The notes under the pieces: model-generated
Seen by the model: only the letters and a program-made list of their open reading frames with translations
Database searches by the model: none
What the model was told of the DNA's origin: nothing
Position numbers and translations under genes: made by a program
DNA from: Nannocystis bainbridge
GTDB taxonomy: Bacteria; Myxococcota_A; Polyangia; Nannocystales; Nannocystaceae
Assembly: GCF_028368995.1 (NCBI RefSeq)
Contig: NZ_JAQNDL010000002.1
Span: 737,724 to 801,723, forward strand
Length of the DNA stretch: 64,000 nt
Reading direction: 5' to 3'
In this document: positions 1 through 52,629 of the stretch, one piece after another
How the letters are laid out: each line of letters begins with the position of its first letter
How positions within the stretch are numbered: position 1 is the first letter of the stretch

Positions 1-665
1 TCGCGGCCGCGCTGACGCGGGCGCTGGAGGACCTCGGGCGGCGCGCCGACGTGCGCGCGTGCGTGATCGCGGGCCTGCCGGAGGTGTTCTCCGCCGGCGG
101 CGACCGCGACGTCCTGCTCGGCCTCGCCGACGGCACGATCGCCCCGTACGACCTCCTGCTGACGCGCGCGCTGCTCGAGGTGCCGGTGCCGACGATCGCC
201 GCGATGGCGGGCCCCGCGGTCGGCGGCGGGCTGGTGTTCGGGCTCGCCTGCGACATGGTCGTGATGGCCCGCGAGAGCCGCTACGGCCTCAATTTCATGG
301 ACCTCGGGTTCACGCCGGGGATGGGCGCGACGCGGCTGGTGCAGTTCGCGTTCGGCGAGTATGTCGGCGCCGAGATGCTGCTGGGTGGCCAGTACTTCCG
401 CGGCGAGCAGCTGGCGGGGCGCGGCCAGATCAACGCGGTCGTGCCGCGCGCCGAGGTGCTGCCGCGGGCGCTCGACATCGCGGCCCGGATCGCCGACAAG
501 CCGCGGGCTGCGCTGCTGTTGCTCAAGCGTGCGCTGGCGTTGCCGCGCCGGCGCGCGTTCGAAGAGGCGCGCACGGTCGAGTCGATGATGCACGAGGTAT
601 GCTTCGCCGACCCGGAGACGGTGGCGCGGATCCGCACCAACTACGGGCCAGGCCAGGGAGGATGA
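1..665 (+). CDS. enoyl-CoA hydratase/isomerase (crotonase) family protein, 5'-truncated at window edge
   Basis: The frame is open from nt 3 (AAALTRALEDLGRRADVRACVIAGLPEVFSAGGDRD...). It shows the crotonase-fold pattern V-x-G-x-G-x-F-x-AG-D. Stop at 663-665, followed 4 nt later by the next gene. Confidence 0.7.
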   Translation, partial: AAALTRALEDLGRRADVRACVIAGLPEVFSAGGDRDVLLGLADGTIAPYDLLLTRALLEVPVPTIAAMAGPAVGGGLVFGLACDMVVMARESRYGLNFMDLGFTPGMGATRLVQFAFGEYVGAEMLLGGQYFRGEQLAGRGQINAVVPRAEVLPRALDIAARIADKPRAALLLLKRALALPRRRAFEEARTVESMMHEVCFADPETVARIRTNYGPGQGG

Positions 666-668
666 CGC

Positions 669-1484
669 TTGCTCAATGACTTCAAGGACAGGGTCGTCTT
701 GATCACGGGCGGGACGCGCGGCATCGGCCTCGCGTGCGGGCTCGCGTTCGGGCGCCAGGGCGCGCGCACGGTGCTGACGCACCGCTGGGGCTCGGCCGAC
801 GAGAACGACATCAAGGCCCGCTTCACCGCCGTGGGCGCCCCGGCGCCGCTGGTGCTCGAGGCCGACGCGTCGCGCGAAGAGGACACCGACAGGCTGACCG
901 CGCGGCTCAAGGAGGAGTGCGACGGCGTGTGGGCGTTCATCAGCAACGTCTGCGTGGTCCAGCGCGGCGACGGCCCGGAGAAGCACACCCGGCGCGCGCT
1001 GTACAAGAGCCTCGAGTACTCGAGCTGGCCGTTCGTCGGCTACCTGCAGGCGCTGCACGCCGCGTTCGGCCGCTACCCCCGCTACGCGCTGGCGATGTCG
1101 TCCGACGGGCCCGACACCCACTACCCGGGCTACGACTTCGTGGCGGTGGCCAAGGCGGTGCTCGAGACGTTCGTGCGCTACATGAGCACGCACCTCTACG
1201 AGCAAGGCTGCATCGTCAACGCCTTGCGCACCCGCCAGGTCATGACCGAGAGCTACGAGCAGATGTTCGCCGCCCAGCAGCGCGAGCTGGCCGGCAAGTT
1301 CCCCGAGTTCGCGTGCACCGTCGACGAGGTCGCCGACACCACGCTGGCGCTGTGCAGCGGGCTGTTCGACGCGATGGGCGGGCAGGTGCTGACGCTCGAC
1401 CGCGGGGCCGCGTTCGTCGACAACGTCGCCACGCTCGGGCCGCGGCTCGTCGGCGGCAGCGACAAAGAAGGAGCTCCGGCGTGA
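669..1484 (+). CDS. FabI-like enoyl-[acyl-carrier-protein] reductase (SDR superfamily), paralog 1
   Basis: TTG start 8 nt after the RBS AGGGAGG. N-terminal VVLITGGTRGIGLA Rossmann motif. ...AMSSDGPDTHYPGYDFVAVAKAVLETFVRYMS carries the Y-x6-K catalytic spacing and VRYM motif of FabI-type reductases. Its stop TGA (1482-1484) overlaps the GTG start of the next gene. Confidence 0.7.
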   Translation: MLNDFKDRVVLITGGTRGIGLACGLAFGRQGARTVLTHRWGSADENDIKARFTAVGAPAPLVLEADASREEDTDRLTARLKEECDGVWAFISNVCVVQRGDGPEKHTRRALYKSLEYSSWPFVGYLQALHAAFGRYPRYALAMSSDGPDTHYPGYDFVAVAKAVLETFVRYMSTHLYEQGCIVNALRTRQVMTESYEQMFAAQQRELAGKFPEFACTVDEVADTTLALCSGLFDAMGGQVLTLDRGAAFVDNVATLGPRLVGGSDKEGAPA

Positions 1485-2296
1485 TCCTCCGCAACGATCT
1501 CAAGGGCAAGGCCGTCATCGTCACCGGCGGCACGGCCGGCATCGGGCTGGCGACCGGCCTCCTGTTCGGCAAGCACGGCGCGCACGTCTATCTGACGCAC
1601 CGCTGGGGCTCGGCCGACGAGGACGAGCTGCGGGCCCAATTCGAGGCCGCGGGCGCGCCGGCGCCGACGATCGTCGAGGCCGACGCGTCGCAGGACGAGG
1701 ACACCGAGGCGCTGATGCAGCAGGTGAAGCGCGACCACGACGCGGTGTTCGCCCTCATCAGCAACGTGTCGTTCGCCCACGTCAGCAAGTCGCACGAGGA
1801 CCTCGACAAGAAGAGCTTCCTGCGCAGCCTCGGGTACAGCGCGTGGCCGTTCGTCGGCTACCTGCAGGCCATCCACGAGACCTTCGGCCGCTGGCCGCGC
1901 TACGCGGTGGGAATGTCGTCGCGCGGGCCCGAGTACTTCCTGCCGGGCTACGACTTCGTGGCCGCGAGCAAGACCGTGATGGAGACCTTCTGTCGCTACC
2001 TCACGGCAGATCTGCTCAGTGAGGATGTTCGCATCAACATCCTGCGCGCGAACCCGGTCGAGACTGCATCGCTGGAGGCGACCTTCGGGCCCGAGTTCGT
2101 CCCGTTCTGCAAGAAGTACTACTCGGAAGGCTGGTTCATCCAGCCAGACGAGGTCGCGGCCGCGGCGCTTGCTCTTTGCAGCGGCCTCATGGACGGGGTC
2201 AAGGGGCAGATTCTGCTACTGGACAGGGGCCTCGGTTTCGCCGACAACGTCGTTCGCCTGTTTTCGGCGCGCGAGCGTCACGGGCTGAATTTTTGA
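1481..2296 (+). CDS. FabI-like enoyl-[acyl-carrier-protein] reductase (SDR superfamily), paralog 2
   Basis: GTGA start/stop overlap with paralog 1. AVIVTGGTAGIGLA motif, then ...GMSSRGPEYFLPGYDFVAASKTVMETFCRYLT (Y-x6-K). It aligns along its whole length with the upstream paralog (a tandem duplicate). Confidence 0.7.
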   Translation: MILRNDLKGKAVIVTGGTAGIGLATGLLFGKHGAHVYLTHRWGSADEDELRAQFEAAGAPAPTIVEADASQDEDTEALMQQVKRDHDAVFALISNVSFAHVSKSHEDLDKKSFLRSLGYSAWPFVGYLQAIHETFGRWPRYAVGMSSRGPEYFLPGYDFVAASKTVMETFCRYLTADLLSEDVRINILRANPVETASLEATFGPEFVPFCKKYYSEGWFIQPDEVAAAALALCSGLMDGVKGQILLLDRGLGFADNVVRLFSARERHGLNF

Positions 2297-2359
2297 CCTT
2301 CGCTTCCTGCGAGATTCGCTGCGGGCAACCTGCACCGCGCCCACCAAGGAGAACCGAGA

Positions 2360-2626
2360 ATGAGCACCCGCGATGATGTCTTGGCCGTCGTCAAGCGCCA
2401 CCTCGTGGACACCGTCGAAGGGATCGATGTGGCCCAAGTCGACCCCGCGAAGTCGATGAAAGACCTCGGCGCCAACAGCCTCGACATCGTCGAGGTCGTC
2501 TCCTGCAGCATGCGCGAGCTCAAGGTGAAGATCCCCCGCGCCGAGCTCAACAGGCTCACCAACATCGACGAACTCGTCGACCTGCTGCACAAGACCCTGC
2601 AAGAGAAGCAGGCCGCCGCGTCCTGA
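2360..2626 (+). CDS. acyl carrier protein
   Basis: 88 aa. The DLGANSLDIVEVV phosphopantetheine-attachment motif contains the Ser. An AAGGAGAA RBS sits 7 nt upstream of the ATG. Confidence 0.85.
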   Translation: MSTRDDVLAVVKRHLVDTVEGIDVAQVDPAKSMKDLGANSLDIVEVVSCSMRELKVKIPRAELNRLTNIDELVDLLHKTLQEKQAAAS

Positions 2627-2634
2627 ACCGCGGC

Positions 2635-2680
2635 GGTGCATGTCCCCGGGGCCAGGGTCCTGGGGGGACATGTCCGACCA
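2635..2680. repeat. Palindromic hairpin of the GGACATGTCC repeat family (GCATGTCCCC...GGGGGACATGTCC) immediately 3' of the ACP gene. Terminator-like.
   Basis: Inverted repeat CATGTCCCC / GGGGACATG around a 17-nt loop that is itself palindromic. A second element, CCTGTCC-TTCG-GGACAGG, lies at 2917-2934 just before the stop of the convergent gene. Confidence 0.6.
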
Positions 2681-2949
2681 GCCAGACCTTCGCGCCCGCG
2701 CTGCGCATGCCGCAGCCCGGGCGCGCTCGTCGTCGCGGAACCCGGACGCGCTGCGTCGCGCTCGAGCGTCGTGACGCCGAGCGCTTCGCGGCGTGTCTCG
2801 GCTCGCTGCGTCTGGGACGCTCGACGAGCGGGCGGGGCTGTCCGTCGCTCGAGCCGCGCGGGTCAACGTCGTGATCCCGACGGGGTCGGGGCGCGCTGGC
2901 GCTGCGGTGATGCGTGCCTGTCCTTCGGGACAGGTGAAACGGTGCGACC

Positions 2950-3726
2950 TCAGGCCGGCGGCAGGCGGCGGACCAGCGCCTCGGCGCGGCGCCAGGCCGA
3001 CACCACGAGCAGGCCCCACGCGTTGAGGCCGAGCGCGACCGCGAGGGCGACTGTCCAGAAGGACAGGTCGAGGCGGATCGCCGCGCACGCCGTGGCGACG
3101 TAGAGGAGCGCGAGGTGGGTGTCGTGGCCGAGCAGGGCCGCCATGCGCATCGGTCCGGCCAGCAGCGAGCGAGCGGCGCCCGGCGCCGGGAGCGGTCCGC
3201 TGTGCTTCGGCCCGAGCAGGGCGGCGGCGATGTCGTGGAACACCGCGGGGCCGCGGACCTGCGAGGCCGGCGCGTCGTCGCCGACGGCGCCGGTGAGGTC
3301 GCGGAAGCGACGGCGCAGCTCGGCGTGGAGGCCGACCTGGATCAGCGCGCTGACCACCGCCAGCGACGCGAGCGTACAGGTCCATGGGTTGGCGGGCGCG
3401 GTACGAGTCGTCAGCGCGAGCCAAAAGGCCGCGCCGACCGCAAACTCGAGCGTGCCGGCCTCGACCTCGGCGGCACCGGCCACGAGCCGGCGGCCGCGGC
3501 TGGCGACGGTGAACGCGAACAGCAGCCAGGCGGGGAAGATCCAGTCCACGCCGTGCGGCGCGGCCAGCAGCACGGCGACGGCGCCGGTGAGGCCGACCAC
3601 GAGTCCGGCGAGGGTCAGCAGCTCGACGCTCGGCGCCGGTCGCACCCGCGCGAGCACCCACGCTGCGAGCGGCCGATGGAGGTGGCGATCGAGGATGCCC
3701 TCGGTGATCGGATCGTCGTCAGCCAT
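2950..3726 (-). CDS. integral membrane protein (multi-TM; weak resemblance to CDP-alcohol phosphatidyltransferase N-terminus)
   Basis: 258 aa with several hydrophobic helices (LLTLAGLVVGLTGAVAVLLA, WLLFAFTVAS, LASLAVVSALIQVGL, FWTVALAVALGLNAWGLLVV). The family DG..AR motif is absent, so function is unassigned. Confidence 0.45.
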   Translation of the reverse strand: MADDDPITEGILDRHLHRPLAAWVLARVRPAPSVELLTLAGLVVGLTGAVAVLLAAPHGVDWIFPAWLLFAFTVASRGRRLVAGAAEVEAGTLEFAVGAAFWLALTTRTAPANPWTCTLASLAVVSALIQVGLHAELRRRFRDLTGAVGDDAPASQVRGPAVFHDIAAALLGPKHSGPLPAPGAARSLLAGPMRMAALLGHDTHLALLYVATACAAIRLDLSFWTVALAVALGLNAWGLLVVSAWRRAEALVRRLPPA

Positions 3727-39970: not shown

Positions 39971-40265
39971 CACGGCACCCGACCGCTCGACACTCGCGCC
40001 CGCTTCGCTCGCTTGCGTCATGGTTCTCCGACCATGTCCCAAGATGCAGTCCGCCTCGTGCCACGGTCGTGCGCGCACGCGACCTGCGCAGTGGCCCGCG
40101 GTCCGGTAACGCCTCCGGGTGGTCTTCGAGACAGGACCCGACGGGACCTACGAAGGACAGCACAGCGCGTTTCCGCGCCAGGGCCGAGATAATCTTCTCG
40201 GCCATGATCGGGTGGGCATCGGCTTGCCAAGGCGGATCCCCTGTGTGACCTTCAGTCTGCGGCGC

Positions 40266-41360
40266 ATGCTCTACGAGGACCGCTACAAGCTGATTTTGGC
40301 CGCGTGCCAGGACATTCGCCGGCATCGCGAGGAGGTCGCCAAGACGGTGATAGCGAGCCAGCTCCTCGACGCTCTCGACGTCGATGTCCCGAGCGACGCG
40401 CTCTTGTCCCACATCGTCGCCGAGTCGCTGCTGCGACGGATCGACCGTAACCTGCTGTCCGGGCGGAACTTGTACCTGCAAGTCGAGAAGCGGCCGCAGA
40501 TCGATCTGTTCACGCTGCTGCAGCGGGCGATCCCGGCCGTGCCGCAGGGCTATGCGCTCGCCAACCAGTATCTGGTCCACGCGATGCGGCAGTCGAGCAC
40601 GCCGACGCTGCTCGAGATCGGGATCGGCAAGGGCTTGCAGGTGGTCGCGCTGCTGCGGGCGCTCGCGCGCGACCCGGGGAAGATCGAGCGCATCCGCGTG
40701 ATCGCGCTCGACCCCAACCGCACGGCGTTGACCGAGGGCGTGGCGGCGATCGACGAGGTCCGCGCCGAGCTGCCGTTCGACATCGAGATCTACCCGCTGG
40801 TCAAGCTGATCGAGGTCTGCGAGGATGCCGACTACGCGCACTTCGAGGCGCTCGCCGAGGGGAGCTTGTCGATCAACGCGGCCTACACGCTGCACCACAC
40901 CACGGGCCCCGACAGCGACGCGCGCACTCGACTGCTGCGGCGGCTGCGGGCCCTGAAGCCGCGGGTGTTCACGCTGGTCGAGCCGAGCTCGGACCACGAC
41001 ACCGAGCACCTGACCCGGCGCATGCACCACTGCTGGCAGCACTTCGCGACCGTGTTCGACCTGGTCGACCGCAGCGACGCGTCGCCCGACGAGAAGTTCG
41101 CCATCAAGGAAGGCTTCTTCGGCCGCGAGGTCCGCGACATCCTCGGCACCAGCGACGCCTTCCGCTGCGAGCGCCACGAGACGCTCGAGTCGTGGCTGCT
41201 GCGGCTGAAGAAGTCGGGCTTCGTGCCGTACCCGGAGATCGAGCTCGACGTCGACCTGCCGGAGTACTGCCGCTCGTCGGTCAGCTCCGGGCTCGTGCGG
41301 CTGTCCTACCGCAGCGTGCCGATCATCGCCGTGTTCGCGTTCGCGGGGGAGGCGGGATGA
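40266..41360 (+). CDS. bacterial GRAS-domain protein (Rossmann-fold methyltransferase-like)
   Basis: 364 aa from ATG 40266. It carries GRAS-like motifs in order: TLLEIGIGKGLQVVALLRALA (VHIID-like G-x-G), RIRVIALDPN, SINAAYTLHH, LKPRVFTLVEPSSDHDTEHLTRRMHHCWQHFATVFDLVD, FFGREVRDILG (PFYRE-like), RCERHETLESWLLRLKKSGFVP (RVER/SAW-like). GTG 40119 is an alternative start. Confidence 0.75.
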   Translation: MLYEDRYKLILAACQDIRRHREEVAKTVIASQLLDALDVDVPSDALLSHIVAESLLRRIDRNLLSGRNLYLQVEKRPQIDLFTLLQRAIPAVPQGYALANQYLVHAMRQSSTPTLLEIGIGKGLQVVALLRALARDPGKIERIRVIALDPNRTALTEGVAAIDEVRAELPFDIEIYPLVKLIEVCEDADYAHFEALAEGSLSINAAYTLHHTTGPDSDARTRLLRRLRALKPRVFTLVEPSSDHDTEHLTRRMHHCWQHFATVFDLVDRSDASPDEKFAIKEGFFGREVRDILGTSDAFRCERHETLESWLLRLKKSGFVPYPEIELDVDLPEYCRSSVSSGLVRLSYRSVPIIAVFAFAGEAG

Positions 41361-49395: not shown

Positions 49396-52300
49396 TCAGT
49401 TCGGGTGGCGCTCGAGCCAGGCGTCGACCTCGGCCCGGTAGTGCTTCGCCCCTGCCTTGCGGAACAGGGTCTGCGCGGAGACGGCGAGGGACCGTGCTCG
49501 AGCGCGGTCTCCGCGGCTGTCCCAGAGGACCTGCGCCAGCTGGAACTCGGCGTGGGCGCGCTGGATCGGGGCGTTGCGCGGGTCGAGCAAGCCGAGGCTG
49601 CGCTCGAGGTCGCGGCGCGCGTCGTCGAAGCGCGCCTGGCCCTGCCGCACCTTGGCGCGGGGGGTCAAGACCTCCGACATCCACAGCGAGTCGACGCCGT
49701 AGTTGCGCTCGATCGCGGCGACGGCGGCGTCGGCCTCGCGCTCGGCCGCGGTCAAGTCGCCGAGGCCCGCGAGGGCGACGGCCCGCATGGCCCGACTGAC
49801 GGCGGTATAGAGGTTGTCCTCGCCGAGCACCGTGGCCGCGAGCGGCAGGGCGAGGTCGATGTGGTCGCGGGCGGCGGCATAGTTGTTGCGGGCCAGCTCG
49901 ATCTGGGCCAGCGCGAGGTGGGCCAGTACGGTGCCCTGTGGATCGGGGCTCTGAGCCGAGCTCCAGATAGCGAGTGCGCGAGAGGCGTGCTGCTCGGCCA
50001 GGCCGAGCTCGCCGCGCACGAGCTGGACCGAGGCGAGTCGCTCGAGCATGGCGGCGACGCGGGTGCTCTCGGGGCCGAAGTTGTGCTCCCAGATCGCGCG
50101 CGCCTCCTCGAAGGCGTCGAGCGCGGCGGTGAAGTCGCCGCGCTGGGCGGCGATGTCGGCCAGGGCCGAGAGCGGGAAGGCGAGCCGCTCGTGGCGCGGG
50201 GGCAGGGCGGCGCGGAGGATCGCCAGGGCGGCGCGCTGGTGCTGCTCGGCGGTGTCGAAGTCGCCGCGCAGGGTGGCGACGTTGCCGAGGTCGGCCAGCG
50301 AGAAGGCGTTGCTCGGGTGAGCCTCGCCGTAGATGTCGCGGCGCAGGGCCAGGAGCTCGTCGAAGATCGTCTGCGCCGGGCCGAGCTGGCCGAGGCTCAT
50401 GTGGACGTTGGCGAGGTTCTGCCGGGTGGTGACGGCGGCGGCCGAGCGCTCGGGCACGCCCTCGAGCGAGCGGCGGTAGTGGTCGATGGCGGTGACGTAC
50501 TCGCGGCGCGCCTCGGCGATCTGGCCGCGGCGGAACTCGAGGTCGCCGCCGAGGCCGGGCGGACGTCCGAGGCGCTCGTAAAGAGCCTCGGCGTTGCGCA
50601 GCCACGGCCGGGCGTCTTCGGGGTGGCCGAGGGTCTGCGCGAGGCGGCCGGCGAAGGCGCTGGCGGTGGCGAAGGCCAGGCGATCGTGGCCGACGGCGAG
50701 CGCGCCCCAGTAGGCCTCGCCGTATACGCGGGTGCCGTCGTCGTACTTGCTGGCGACGAACAATTGCTCGGCGAGCTCGGCCAGCACCTGGGTGTGCAGC
50801 GGGCGGTAGCCGAGGGCGCGTGCGCGCTGCTCGGTGGCCTCGAGCAGGGCCAGGCCGGCGCCCGGGTGACCGGCGGCCGCCTCGGCGGTGGCGACCGAGA
50901 GCTGGTCGCGCAAGGTCTGGACGGCGTCGACGATCGCGGGCGCGGGCGCGTCGACCTCGGCCTGCAGGGCGTCGAGGTCGGCGCAGCGGGCGGGCGGGGG
51001 CAAGGCCTCGACGGCGTCGTGGGCGTGCTCGACGGCGTCGGCGTCGGCTCCGACGAGCACGCCGAGCAAGGCCTCGAGCTCGTGGCGGCGATCCTCGAGG
51101 CAGTGCATGCGCCTGTCCAAAAGGTCATGTGATTGTTCGCCGCGGATGTTGGCGGCCGCGCACGCGTCGGTGTGACCGGCGATCCACGCCTCGGCCCAGG
51201 CGTCGACGCGGGCGCCGGCGCGGGCGGCCGCGTCGCGGGCGTAGGGCAGGCCGGTGGCGGCGAAGGCGGCGTCGAGACCGGCGCGCCGCTGCGGGTTCCA
51301 GGTCGGGGCGAGCGCCTCGGCGGCGCCGGTGCACAGGGCGGGGGCGTCGGGAAGGACGGCGAAGGCGATCGCGCCGGCGATCAGCGCCGCGCCGCCGCCG
51401 GCGAGGGCCCAGCGCCGACGGTCGCGCCGCAGCGGCCGTTCGAGCGCGCCGAGCAGCGCCTGCATCGAGGGCCACCTGTCCCCGGGTTCAGGTGAGAGGC
51501 CGCGCAGGATGGCGCGGTGGATCGCGGGCGGGACCCGGATCGCGCGCCGCGGCGGATCGAGGCGGCCCTGGGACTTGGCCGCCTCGAGGGCGAACAGGTT
51601 GTCGCCGCTGAACGGGCGGTTGCCGTAGAGGCCCTCGTAGAGGGCGACGCAGAAGCTGAACTGATCGGCGCGCTCGTCGATGGCGGCGCCGCCCCGCTGC
51701 TCGGGGGCCATGTACGCCGGGGTGCCGACCACGGTGCCTACGCGGGTGAGCGGGCCGGACACCAGCGACGAGGACAGCGGATCGAGCGGAGCGTCGAGGT
51801 CGGGGGTGGCGCCGGCCGGGTTCACCTCGACGTCGCCGGCGGGCCGCGCCAGGCCGAAGTCGAACACGCAGATCCGACCTGTCTCTCCGACCAGGACGTT
51901 GCCGGGCTTGAAGTCGCGGTGGATGACGCCGACAGCGTGGGCGGCGATGAGGCCGCGGCCGGCGGCGAGGAACACTTCGACGATCTCGCGGACGCCGCGG
52001 ACGCGATCGTCGAGCCACTGCGCGAGGGTGATGCCGGGCACGTACTCCATCACCAGGAACACGCCGCCGGCGTGCGGTGATCTGGCCTTCGGGACAGGAT
52101 CGGTGCGGCGCGGGCCGATCCTCATCGTCGTGAGCGCGTCGGCGTCGTACGAGCCGACGTCGTGGACGGCGACGACGTTGCCGTGCGACAGCCGGGCCAG
52201 CGCCTGGGCCTCGCGCAGCAGGCGGGCGTGGGCGGCGTGGGCCGGACCGTCGCCGGGAGCGACGCGCAGCAGCTTGATCGCGACCTTGCGATCGAGGCTG

Positions 52301-52629
52301 GGATCGTAGGCGAGGTAGACGACGCCCATGCCGCCGGCGCCGAGGCGACGCATGAGCACGTAGCGGGTGAGCTGGAGCGCGCGCTCGCGCTGCGACAGCG
52401 ACGAACGATCGAGGTCCGGCGGCCGGGCCGGGGCGCGCGCCGTGGGCGAAAGATCTCCGGCCAGAGTCGCGTCGGTGGCGAAGTCGGGGCGCGGAGGAAG
52501 GTCGCCGACAAGCGTGGGATCGGGGTCCGGCCCAGAGGATGGTGGGGTGGGATCACCGCCGGCGCGCGACATCTGCGGGTCCAGGTTATCCCGGCGTCGC
52601 ATCGATGTCGTGCCGGGCTTGAGGCGCAA
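49396..52629 (-). CDS. eukaryotic-like Ser/Thr protein kinase with C-terminal TPR-repeat domain
   Basis: Kinase subdomains LGAGGMGVVYLAYD...VAIK, HRDFKPGNVLV, DFGLARP, GTPAYMAPE. Predicted TM helix (WALAGGGAALIAGAIAFAVL), then ~600 aa of TPR-like repeats. The start may be 52629, 52602 or 52572. Confidence 0.8.
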   Translation of the reverse strand: MRLKPGTTSMRRRDNLDPQMSRAGGDPTPPSSGPDPDPTLVGDLPPRPDFATDATLAGDLSPTARAPARPPDLDRSSLSQRERALQLTRYVLMRRLGAGGMGVVYLAYDPSLDRKVAIKLLRVAPGDGPAHAAHARLLREAQALARLSHGNVVAVHDVGSYDADALTTMRIGPRRTDPVPKARSPHAGGVFLVMEYVPGITLAQWLDDRVRGVREIVEVFLAAGRGLIAAHAVGVIHRDFKPGNVLVGETGRICVFDFGLARPAGDVEVNPAGATPDLDAPLDPLSSSLVSGPLTRVGTVVGTPAYMAPEQRGGAAIDERADQFSFCVALYEGLYGNRPFSGDNLFALEAAKSQGRLDPPRRAIRVPPAIHRAILRGLSPEPGDRWPSMQALLGALERPLRRDRRRWALAGGGAALIAGAIAFAVLPDAPALCTGAAEALAPTWNPQRRAGLDAAFAATGLPYARDAAARAGARVDAWAEAWIAGHTDACAAANIRGEQSHDLLDRRMHCLEDRRHELEALLGVLVGADADAVEHAHDAVEALPPPARCADLDALQAEVDAPAPAIVDAVQTLRDQLSVATAEAAAGHPGAGLALLEATEQRARALGYRPLHTQVLAELAEQLFVASKYDDGTRVYGEAYWGALAVGHDRLAFATASAFAGRLAQTLGHPEDARPWLRNAEALYERLGRPPGLGGDLEFRRGQIAEARREYVTAIDHYRRSLEGVPERSAAAVTTRQNLANVHMSLGQLGPAQTIFDELLALRRDIYGEAHPSNAFSLADLGNVATLRGDFDTAEQHQRAALAILRAALPPRHERLAFPLSALADIAAQRGDFTAALDAFEEARAIWEHNFGPESTRVAAMLERLASVQLVRGELGLAEQHASRALAIWSSAQSPDPQGTVLAHLALAQIELARNNYAAARDHIDLALPLAATVLGEDNLYTAVSRAMRAVALAGLGDLTAAEREADAAVAAIERNYGVDSLWMSEVLTPRAKVRQGQARFDDARRDLERSLGLLDPRNAPIQRAHAEFQLAQVLWDSRGDRARARSLAVSAQTLFRKAGAKHYRAEVDAWLERHPN

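Follow-up and report, generated by a model that had tools for sequence, protein, structure and literature searches.

Among the closest described relatives of the locus reported here are the HMGS beta-branching cassettes of bacillaene (AcpK-PksF-PksG-PksH-PksI) and curacin (CurB-CurF). In the canonical cassette the ketosynthase (KS) is a Cys-to-Ser decarboxylase, a Trp residue flags the acyl carrier proteins (ACPs) that accept the beta-branch, and in curacin an enoyl reductase (ER) also follows the crotonase ECH2. Other points of comparison are the enoyl reductases FabI and FabL, both homotetramers, and the alternative isovaleryl-CoA pathway of Myxococcus xanthus (MvaS-LiuC-AibA/B-AibC), whose isovaleryl unit primes iso-branched lipids in myxobacteria; the latter works on CoA thioesters, with a glutaconate-CoA-transferase-like decarboxylase and a reductase of the medium-chain dehydrogenase/reductase (MDR) type. 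Sphingoid bases are made in bacteria by Spt enzymes fed by a dedicated ACP, as in the Caulobacter-type Spt-ACP-ACS system (PMC9386255), and by the Pseudomonas system PfSgaAB, in which a type I polyketide synthase (PKS) acting iteratively and an alpha-oxoamine synthase give sphinganines (PMC12134224). We analysed a 64,000-nucleotide stretch of Nannocystis bainbridge (contig NZ_JAQNDL010000002.1, positions 737,724 to 801,723; hereafter the window), at whose left edge (1-2626) the open reading frame (ORF) listing and direct reading of the sequence place four co-directional genes, encoding a crotonase, two short-chain dehydrogenases/reductases (SDR1 and SDR2) and an ACP. Our best explanation, held with moderate confidence, is that these are the last third of an 11-gene operon, a self-contained ACP-based type II synthase with an HMGS cassette and off-loading by an alpha-oxoamine synthase (AONS), which would make a sphingoid-like amino lipid.

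All the parts of this operon are of known kinds, and it is their combination that provisionally appears unmatched: a discrete type II synthase that has an HMGS cassette with just one ACP, a KS that condenses and does not decarboxylate, a FabL-like ER that is paired and sometimes fused, and off-loading by an AONS. A literature search found no description of this gene set; open-access coverage is incomplete, so that "undescribed" is provisional.

The proposed operon and its beta-branching cassette

The window begins within the crotonase gene, the 3' part of which lies at 1-665 (frame 3-665, stop codon 663-665; Pfam ECH_1, 141 bits), so that 220 of about 257 amino acids are present. It is followed on the same, forward strand by SDR1 (669-1484, 271 amino acids, TTG start; adh_short_C2, 87 bits), a putative FabL/FabI-like enoyl-ACP reductase subunit, by its paralogue SDR2 (1481-2296, 271 amino acids, GTG start; adh_short_C2, 114 bits) and by a dedicated ACP of 88 amino acids (2360-2626; PP-binding, PF00550, 36 bits against a cut-off of 20.8). 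Four genes running off the left edge were thus present where a preliminary description of the window had placed them. A homology search finds counterparts of SDR2 in Nannocystis radixulma, N. exedens, N. punicea and Nannocystis sp. RBIL2 at 96-97% identity, and SDR1 is 91-96% identical to its Nannocystis orthologues. The four window genes and four genes downstream of them (encoding a 269-amino-acid membrane protein, a 78-amino-acid protein, a PduO-type adenosyltransferase and a PatA_N protein) are collinear with these four Nannocystis genomes at 77-97% protein identity.

Upstream gene content was taken from these four orthologous genomes. Directly upstream, all four carry genes for an AONS, a FabD-like acyltransferase (AT), a FabZ/ApeI-like dehydratase (DH), a KS, a FabG-like ketoreductase (KR), HMGS and a second crotonase (ECH1), which gives the full order AONS-AT-DH-KS-KR-HMGS-ECH1-ECH2-SDR1-SDR2-ACP, 11 genes in total. 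The AONS is a class-I/II pyridoxal-phosphate enzyme of the alpha-oxoamine synthase type (Spt/BioF-like), and a 3beta-HSD/epimerase-type (HpnA/OleD-like) reductase is transcribed divergently from the operon in Nannocystis. An exact-sequence look-up with SDR2 returned one 3.6-kb contig, which starts inside the same ECH gene and has no upstream genes on it. The synteny strongly suggests that the window's own genome has AONS-AT-DH-KS-KR-HMGS-ECH1 upstream. The preliminary description had proposed that the 3' end of a specialised lipid or polyketide cluster enters the window from upstream and had mentioned beta-branching cassettes as an example. Both ideas are supported by the orthologous genomes, which show HMGS, ECH1, ECH2 and AONS; an ordinary fabH/fabD/fabG/fabF order is not what lies upstream, where HMGS, ECH1, ECH2 and AONS are found and FabH is not.

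The gene set is conserved far outside Nannocystis, turning up again in about 50 additional genomes counted at species level (class Polyangia of the Myxococcota, and Planctomycetota). A homologue scan with one genome per species gave 177 relatives, from which 80 loci were kept, and the eleven N. radixulma proteins were mapped onto all of them by tblastn. When members are counted in the 52 loci that span 15 kb or more, KS is present in 52, KR and ACP in 51 each, DH in 50, AT in 48, HMGS in 47, ECH2 in 46, ECH1 in 42 and AONS in 39; every operon member is present in 29. The hosts are Nannocystis, Enhygromyxa and Plesiocystis of the myxococcotal class Polyangia, together with metagenome-assembled genomes (MAGs) assigned to Haliangium, Kofleriaceae, Sandaracinaceae, Polyangiaceae and Planctomycetota/Phycisphaeraceae and a few MAGs from other phyla. 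Distant clades differ in gene order, with SDR-ACP-SDR in some and an inverted HMGS-ECH1-ECH2 block in some. The HMGS/ECH block is not found within 10 kb in the variant loci L033/L085 (9234-10004), L036 (9830 onward), L043, L056 and L064. Because the order varies and HMGS and AONS are sometimes missing, the constant core, as judged by sequence, is AT-DH-KS-KR-SDR-SDR-ACP, usually joined with the HMGS cassette and AONS. The arrangement goes far beyond what chance would give, the same genes being kept in about 80 loci of different species.

Like the bacillaene and curacin cassettes, the operon has an ECH2 that passes the PksI-type model and matches the structures of PksI and CurF. The window crotonase scores 247 bits on NCBIfam PRK07110 (PksI-type), above its cut-off of 215, and the next model reaches 107 bits. 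The full-length N. radixulma orthologue matches PksI (1e-44) and CurF ECH2 (1e-39) in the PDB, whereas generic hydratases match at 1e-25 or weaker. The window crotonase is accordingly assigned as a PksI/CurF-type ECH2, the decarboxylase of a beta-branching cassette. The HMGS of the cluster is likewise nearest to CurD (1e-78) and PksG (5e-68) in a PDB search, ahead of primary HMG-CoA synthases. ECH1, which precedes ECH2, has as its best model PRK07112, which we take to be PksH-type (127 bits against a cut-off of 250), and the best NCBIfam model for the window ACP is PRK07117, presumably AcpK-type, again below cut-off. The phosphopantetheine serine of this ACP is Ser40 in GANSLD; the length of 88 residues and the ribosome-binding site given in the preliminary description were both borne out, but its serine motif reads NSL rather than DSL.

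The operon differs from the cassettes of trans-AT and hybrid PKSs in several respects. Its cassette sits in a free-standing type II set resembling a fatty-acid synthase (FAS) and not in a modular PKS. A single ACP would serve for donor and acceptor: the window ACP is the sole ACP of the cluster in 51 of the 52 long loci, and with no other ACP in the cluster it would have to take both roles. The ER would be the SDR pair, not an MDR or flavin mononucleotide enzyme, and the chain would be released by AONS. The KS also differs. We looked for a non-condensing, Cys-to-Ser KS making acetyl-ACP, and the cluster's only KS keeps its Cys: it aligns with FabF and retains the Cys (GGACASAN) and both His residues (HATSTP and GHTCWS), scoring 356 bits on PRK07103, which we take to be a PksF-type model, against a cut-off of 445. 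Because the Cys-His-His triad is retained, this KS could carry out chain elongation for the entire system.

The paired SDRs

SDR1 and SDR2 share 50% identity over 256 amino acids and have the same catalytic layout. The Y-x6-K motif (Y155/K162 in SDR1, Y157/K164 in SDR2) falls, with no gap in the alignment, on Y156/K163 of E. coli FabI, the sequence of which was verified as PDB 1C14, and SDR2 aligns with this protein over its full length. When the SDRs are aligned with a glucose-dehydrogenase-type SDR, Val occupies the position of the classical Y-x3-K Tyr and the Tyr lies three residues earlier; such a displaced Tyr is a hallmark of the enoyl-reducing "divergent" SDRs. The catalytic Tyr and Lys are invariant in 18 SDR homologues. 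The glycine motif is TGGTxGIG (TGGTRGIG in SDR1), classical and FabL-like. B. subtilis FabL is 19% identical and has the same Y-x6-K layout; the SDRs, like FabL, have Ser at the position of FabI Y146. The AlphaFold2 model of SDR2 (predicted local distance difference test score 85) has a Rossmann SDR fold, as FabL and FabI do.

It is also evident that the resemblance to FabI and FabL is a distant one. The SDRs are 19-24% identical to FabI/FabL (23% to E. coli FabI), both copies being equally distant from FabI, and they score 38-78 bits on FabI and FabL models with cut-offs of 299-477, so that neither falls with housekeeping FabI. At 1e-12 to 1e-17 their matches to PDB sequences are weak, with FabI and glucose dehydrogenases side by side; those of SDR1 are mostly FabI at about 1e-12. 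An exhaustive HMMER search over 1.84 billion cluster representatives recovered only 99 members of the SDR family at E<=1e-30 and 395 at E<=1e-10, and the family has invariant motifs of its own (THRWGSxDE, YSxWP and PGYD). These results indicate that the SDRs form a small, sharply bounded family that is neither FabI nor FabL, and that "FabI-type" appears to denote a distant, motif-level resemblance only. Of the two paralogous FabI-type reductases named in the preliminary description, the paralogy and the Y-x6-K motif therefore stand, while the likeness to FabI is confined to motifs; the VRYM motif reads FVRYMS in SDR1 and FCRYLT in SDR2. Some family members (P0137, P0146, P0147, P0174, P0185 and P0193) are longer, about 405-430 amino acids, with the SDR domain N-terminal and an extra stretch of about 160 amino acids without a Pfam match.

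We then considered which step the pair might catalyse. No other ER candidate was found in the cluster, although KR and DH are both present; because of this the ER step is given to the SDRs, and the economical reading is that the SDR pair would be the system's enoyl reductase. The JGI annotation also calls several of the homologues enoyl-ACP reductase.

The SDR pair is present in 72 of the 80 loci, and most of the remaining eight are cut by contig ends. The two copies are fused in seven genomes, namely three Enhygromyxa salina isolates, Plesiocystis pacifica and three MAGs, where a single ORF of about 565 amino acids reads SDR1, Pro/Ala linker, SDR2 (L021:9107-10804 and L030:9116-10807; also L022, L023, L026, L031 and L032). 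The top representative of the family in the global library (P0121) is itself a 565-amino-acid di-SDR protein. Fusion of genes that are otherwise constant neighbours is classic evidence for products acting as a complex, and both copies keep the cofactor motif and the catalytic residues. Because the pair is constant, sometimes fused, and has intact active-site residues in both members, we think it most likely that SDR1 and SDR2 form a heteromeric reductase in which both kinds of subunit are active. This would set them apart from FabI and FabL, as does their occurrence as two paralogues.

A SDR-ACP-SDR tri-domain fusion seemed to be present in a Planctomycetota MAG (L068:8891-10843) and was rejected, the middle part being the ACP gene in the wrong frame, which is stop-free; this stop-free frame is an artefact or an assembly error. 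We also tried the rule that the upstream copy is SDR1 and the downstream copy SDR2, which is true in Nannocystaceae and blurred in the distant SDR-ACP-SDR clades.

The strongest alternative to the heteromer is that the two SDRs do separate jobs, one reducing trans-2-enoyl-ACP and the other 3-methyl-enoyl-ACP, or one of them acting on the 3-keto group of the AONS product. The copies remain distinct, being about 50% diverged, and with full cofactor motifs and Y/K residues both look catalytically active. In the HMGS-less loci L033 and L036 SDR1 has drifted to 33-35% identity with faint Pfam matches, as if it were tied to the branch, and the top Foldseek match of the SDR2 model is an alpha-aminoketone reductase. 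However, the HMGS-less loci L043 and L064 retain a well-conserved pair, both copies have the ER-type Y-x6-K and not the Y-x3-K of keto-reductases, other candidate keto-reductases adjoin many clusters, and fusion into one chain suits a complex at least equally well. We therefore regard separate jobs as possible but rather less likely than joint action. Two distinct enoyl reductions, one of the options in the preliminary description, are possible and not required, since the pair persists where no HMGS cassette is in reach (L033, L036, L043, L056 and L064).

Proposed pathway and product

The nearest solved relatives of the AONS are Spt from Sphingobacterium (S. multivorum; 7e-72) and the broad-range ThAOS (1e-71), followed by Kbl, other Spt enzymes, cysteate acyltransferase and BioF. 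The best NCBIfam model is bioF (325 bits against 426), and the Spt models score 230-297 bits against cut-offs of 500-670. Here, as with Spt-ACP and PfSgaAB, a private ACP shares its cluster with an AONS of the Spt/BioF/Kbl class, for which the acyl chain would be made or activated. The operon differs from both in that discrete type II enzymes would assemble its chain de novo and include an HMGS branch, and from the Caulobacter-type system in having no acyl-ACP synthetase; the Spt identity of its AONS is not established at 297 bits against 640.

The neighbouring genes vary by clade. A 386-amino-acid GNAT-like protein adjoins the cluster in 15 loci of Nannocystaceae/Sandaracinaceae, though not in Nannocystis itself (L018:11426-12586; L024:1101-2246, minus strand; 13 further loci). 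It has weak Acetyltransf_6/_1 matches and no match in NCBIfam, and it could provide an N-acylating step. A fatty-acyl-AMP ligase (FAAL) follows it in L014 and L018-L020. Other neighbours are GT4 glycosyltransferases and a phosphopantetheinyl transferase, and a set comprising an NTP-transferase (sugar-nucleotide), DegT, GT2 and a sulfatase-family protein (Pfam Sulfatase/Phosphodiest); some loci have an extra SDR after the ACP. No homologues of CerR or bCerS were identified, no direct comparison with them having been made; the only candidates for a ketosphinganine reductase or ceramide synthase are the HpnA/OleD-like reductase, the extra SDR and the GNAT-like protein.

On the gene identities and family assignments read from sequence, the conservation of the set and the fusion of the SDRs we base an inferred scheme, which covers each catalytic step, the heteromer, where the branch lies, the amino acid used and the end product. 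The FabD-like AT would load malonate onto the single ACP (2360-2626), and the FabF-like KS with its Cys-His-His triad would carry out condensation and elongation. The reduction cycle would consist of the FabG-like KR, the FabZ-like DH and the SDR1/SDR2 pair (669-2296), the last most likely as a heteromer of two FabL-like subunits. On one beta-keto intermediate the CurD/PksG-like HMGS would add acetate, ECH1 would dehydrate, and the window ECH2 (1-665) would decarboxylate to a 3-methyl-enoyl-ACP, which the SDR pair would saturate; starting from acetoacetyl-ACP this would give an isovaleryl-type unit and an iso-branched chain. AONS would then condense an amino acid (of the serine, glycine or alanine type) with the completed acyl-ACP, giving a 2-amino-3-keto lipid resembling a sphingoid base, which the variable neighbour genes might reduce, N-acylate or glycosylate.

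The preferred position of the branch is acetoacetyl-ACP, giving an isovaleryl-type iso starter, because this is the first beta-keto intermediate available, the ancestral HMGS substrate and the substrate of the closest relative, CurD, which acts on acetoacetyl-ACP; it is a guess that may well be wrong. If it holds, the operon could be the equivalent, with ACP-bound intermediates, of the alternative isovaleryl-CoA pathway of myxobacteria, which it resembles in outline (HMG formation, dehydration, decarboxylation and reduction to an isovaleryl unit) and from which it differs in having PKS-type, ACP-bound enzymes with ECH2 and SDRs; this too is a guess. Because of the clade neighbours and the full reduction cycle, the product is most likely a saturated, methyl- or iso-branched acyl-ACP destined for a sphingolipid-like envelope lipid. 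In its most specific version, which is tentative, the proposal is of a new and widely conserved branched sphingoid route in Polyangia and planctomycetes: the type II synthase, private to the pathway, would use its PKS-style HMGS cassette and one ACP to set an isovaleryl-type or mid-chain methyl branch, an obligate heteromeric FabL-like ER would saturate the chain, and an Spt-like AONS would take it over directly.

If true, the proposal would add a third bacterial route to sphingolipid-like bases, beside Spt acting on pool acyl-CoA/acyl-ACP and the iterative type I PKS (PMC12134224). It would place an HMGS beta-branching cassette at work inside a discrete system of the fatty-acid type, and not on a modular PKS. 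It would also define a heteromeric SDR enoyl reductase family, a new ER architecture that is naturally fused in Enhygromyxa and Plesiocystis. The operon offers a handle on the envelope lipids of Nannocystaceae and marine planctomycetes, hosts that are hard to culture and whose lipids are used as biomarkers.

Several observations weigh against this explanation. The upstream genes lie outside the window and are known through orthologous genomes. Among the long loci, 5 of 52 have no HMGS block and 13 of 52 show no AONS within reach, some of the latter being cut short at the AONS end, and the core may be a FAS-like module alone. A condensing KS leaves the source of acetyl-ACP for HMGS without explanation; the window ACP has no Trp at all, and it scores 59.6 bits on PRK07117, under the cut-off of 79. 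For the ER assignment, the best FabI models score the SDRs at 38-62 bits, with cut-offs at 299-477, and the FabL model NF005975 gives 70 (SDR1) and 78 bits against 328. Foldseek searches of the SDR2 model against the PDB mix FabI with keto-reducing SDRs among the top matches (1e-19 to 1e-18), the first being an aminoacetone/aminopropanol dehydrogenase; motif alignment is more informative than Foldseek for SDR type. Finally, the BioF, Kbl and Spt models score alike on the AONS, all under their cut-offs, so that they do not point to one amino acid.

A different fate of the chain has to be weighed against the envelope lipid. The operon might make a diffusible metabolite or signal, for example a short branched alpha-aminoketone leading to pyrazines or pyrroles, or a CAI-1-like alpha-hydroxyketone. 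CqsA-type AONS enzymes make signals, and the CqsA-type model reaches 198 bits here; HMGS cassettes are classically secondary-metabolite machinery (PksG and CurD), and Nannocystis is known for pyrazine volatiles. On the other hand, the nearest relatives of the AONS are Spt and ThAOS, not CqsA, and the complete KR/DH/ER set argues for long saturated chains. The neighbours are glycosyltransferases, GNAT-like, FAAL and sulfatase-family proteins, not exporters, regulators or resistance genes, and the set is conserved and syntenic over whole families. We consider a diffusible product unlikely.

The preliminary description had also raised the possibility of one housekeeping-like reductase and one resistance copy, that is, a housekeeping FabI beside a copy protecting the host against a FabI-targeting product of its own. 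Such self-resistance ER copies are known from some antibiotic clusters, e.g., that of kalimantacin, but nothing in the data points toward self-resistance here. Both SDRs are about 20-24% identical to FabI/FabL, equally far from FabI and far under the equivalog cut-offs. In 72 of 80 loci the two are passed on as a pair, seven genomes have them fused, and their tiny family does not extend beyond this type of cluster. The suggestion was abandoned as highly improbable.

An ordinary fatty-acid synthesis or biotin (BioF) locus with an incidental crotonase, to which the FabD-, FabZ-, FabF- and FabG-like genes upstream and the top rank of bioF (325 bits) might point, is rejected on gene content as scarcely credible, since FabD (141/261 bits, score/cut-off), FabZ (81/113), FabF (327/494), FabG (244/298) and bioF all fall under their equivalog cut-offs, the set is without FabH and bioA/B/D, and HMGS, ECH1 and ECH2 are integral to it.

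Gene boundaries and the rest of the window

An AGGGAGG ribosome-binding site (655-661) lies 7 nt 5' of the TTG start of SDR1, and the SDR2 start overlaps the SDR1 stop as GTGA (1481-1484); the preliminary description had pointed out both, and both can be read in the sequence. Direct reading also gives AAGGAG ribosome-binding sites for SDR2 (1468-1473) and for the ACP (2346-2351), all on the forward strand.

Directly 3' of the ACP stop codon, a GC-rich hairpin is found at 2630-2682 (forward strand, -33.2 kcal/mol). Its core stem TGTCC...GGACA is kept in five Nannocystis species, and for this reason the hairpin is probably real as a structure. The preliminary description had called it a terminator, and that part did not hold: the hairpin has no T tract, a terminator scan did not call it, and its z-score is only -1.5, with 15 of 200 shuffled versions of the GC-rich sequence folding equally well. 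It was thus rejected as an intrinsic terminator; it probably marks the end of the operon, where it could have a terminator role. The next gene after the ACP is convergent (2950-3726, minus strand) and encodes a hydrophobic protein of 258 amino acids that has no match in Pfam or NCBIfam. It adjoins the ACP only in Nannocystis species, where it is 76-82% conserved, and is probably not an operon member.

The sampled remainder of the window is ordinary, with an L-aspartate-oxidase-like flavoprotein, a chorismate-binding enzyme, peptidases and a Ser/Thr kinase, and there are no tRNA genes in the window. A large Ser/Thr kinase with TPR repeats is encoded at 49396-52629 (minus strand), and a protein of similar architecture lies directly 3' of the ACP in the Planctomycetota locus L003 (11300-13999); because such kinases are common, this likeness is probably a coincidence. 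A 413-amino-acid protein encoded at 40119-41360 (forward strand) matches the GRAS domain family (PF03514, 117 bits), which is known above all from transcription regulators of plants and seen only occasionally in bacteria.

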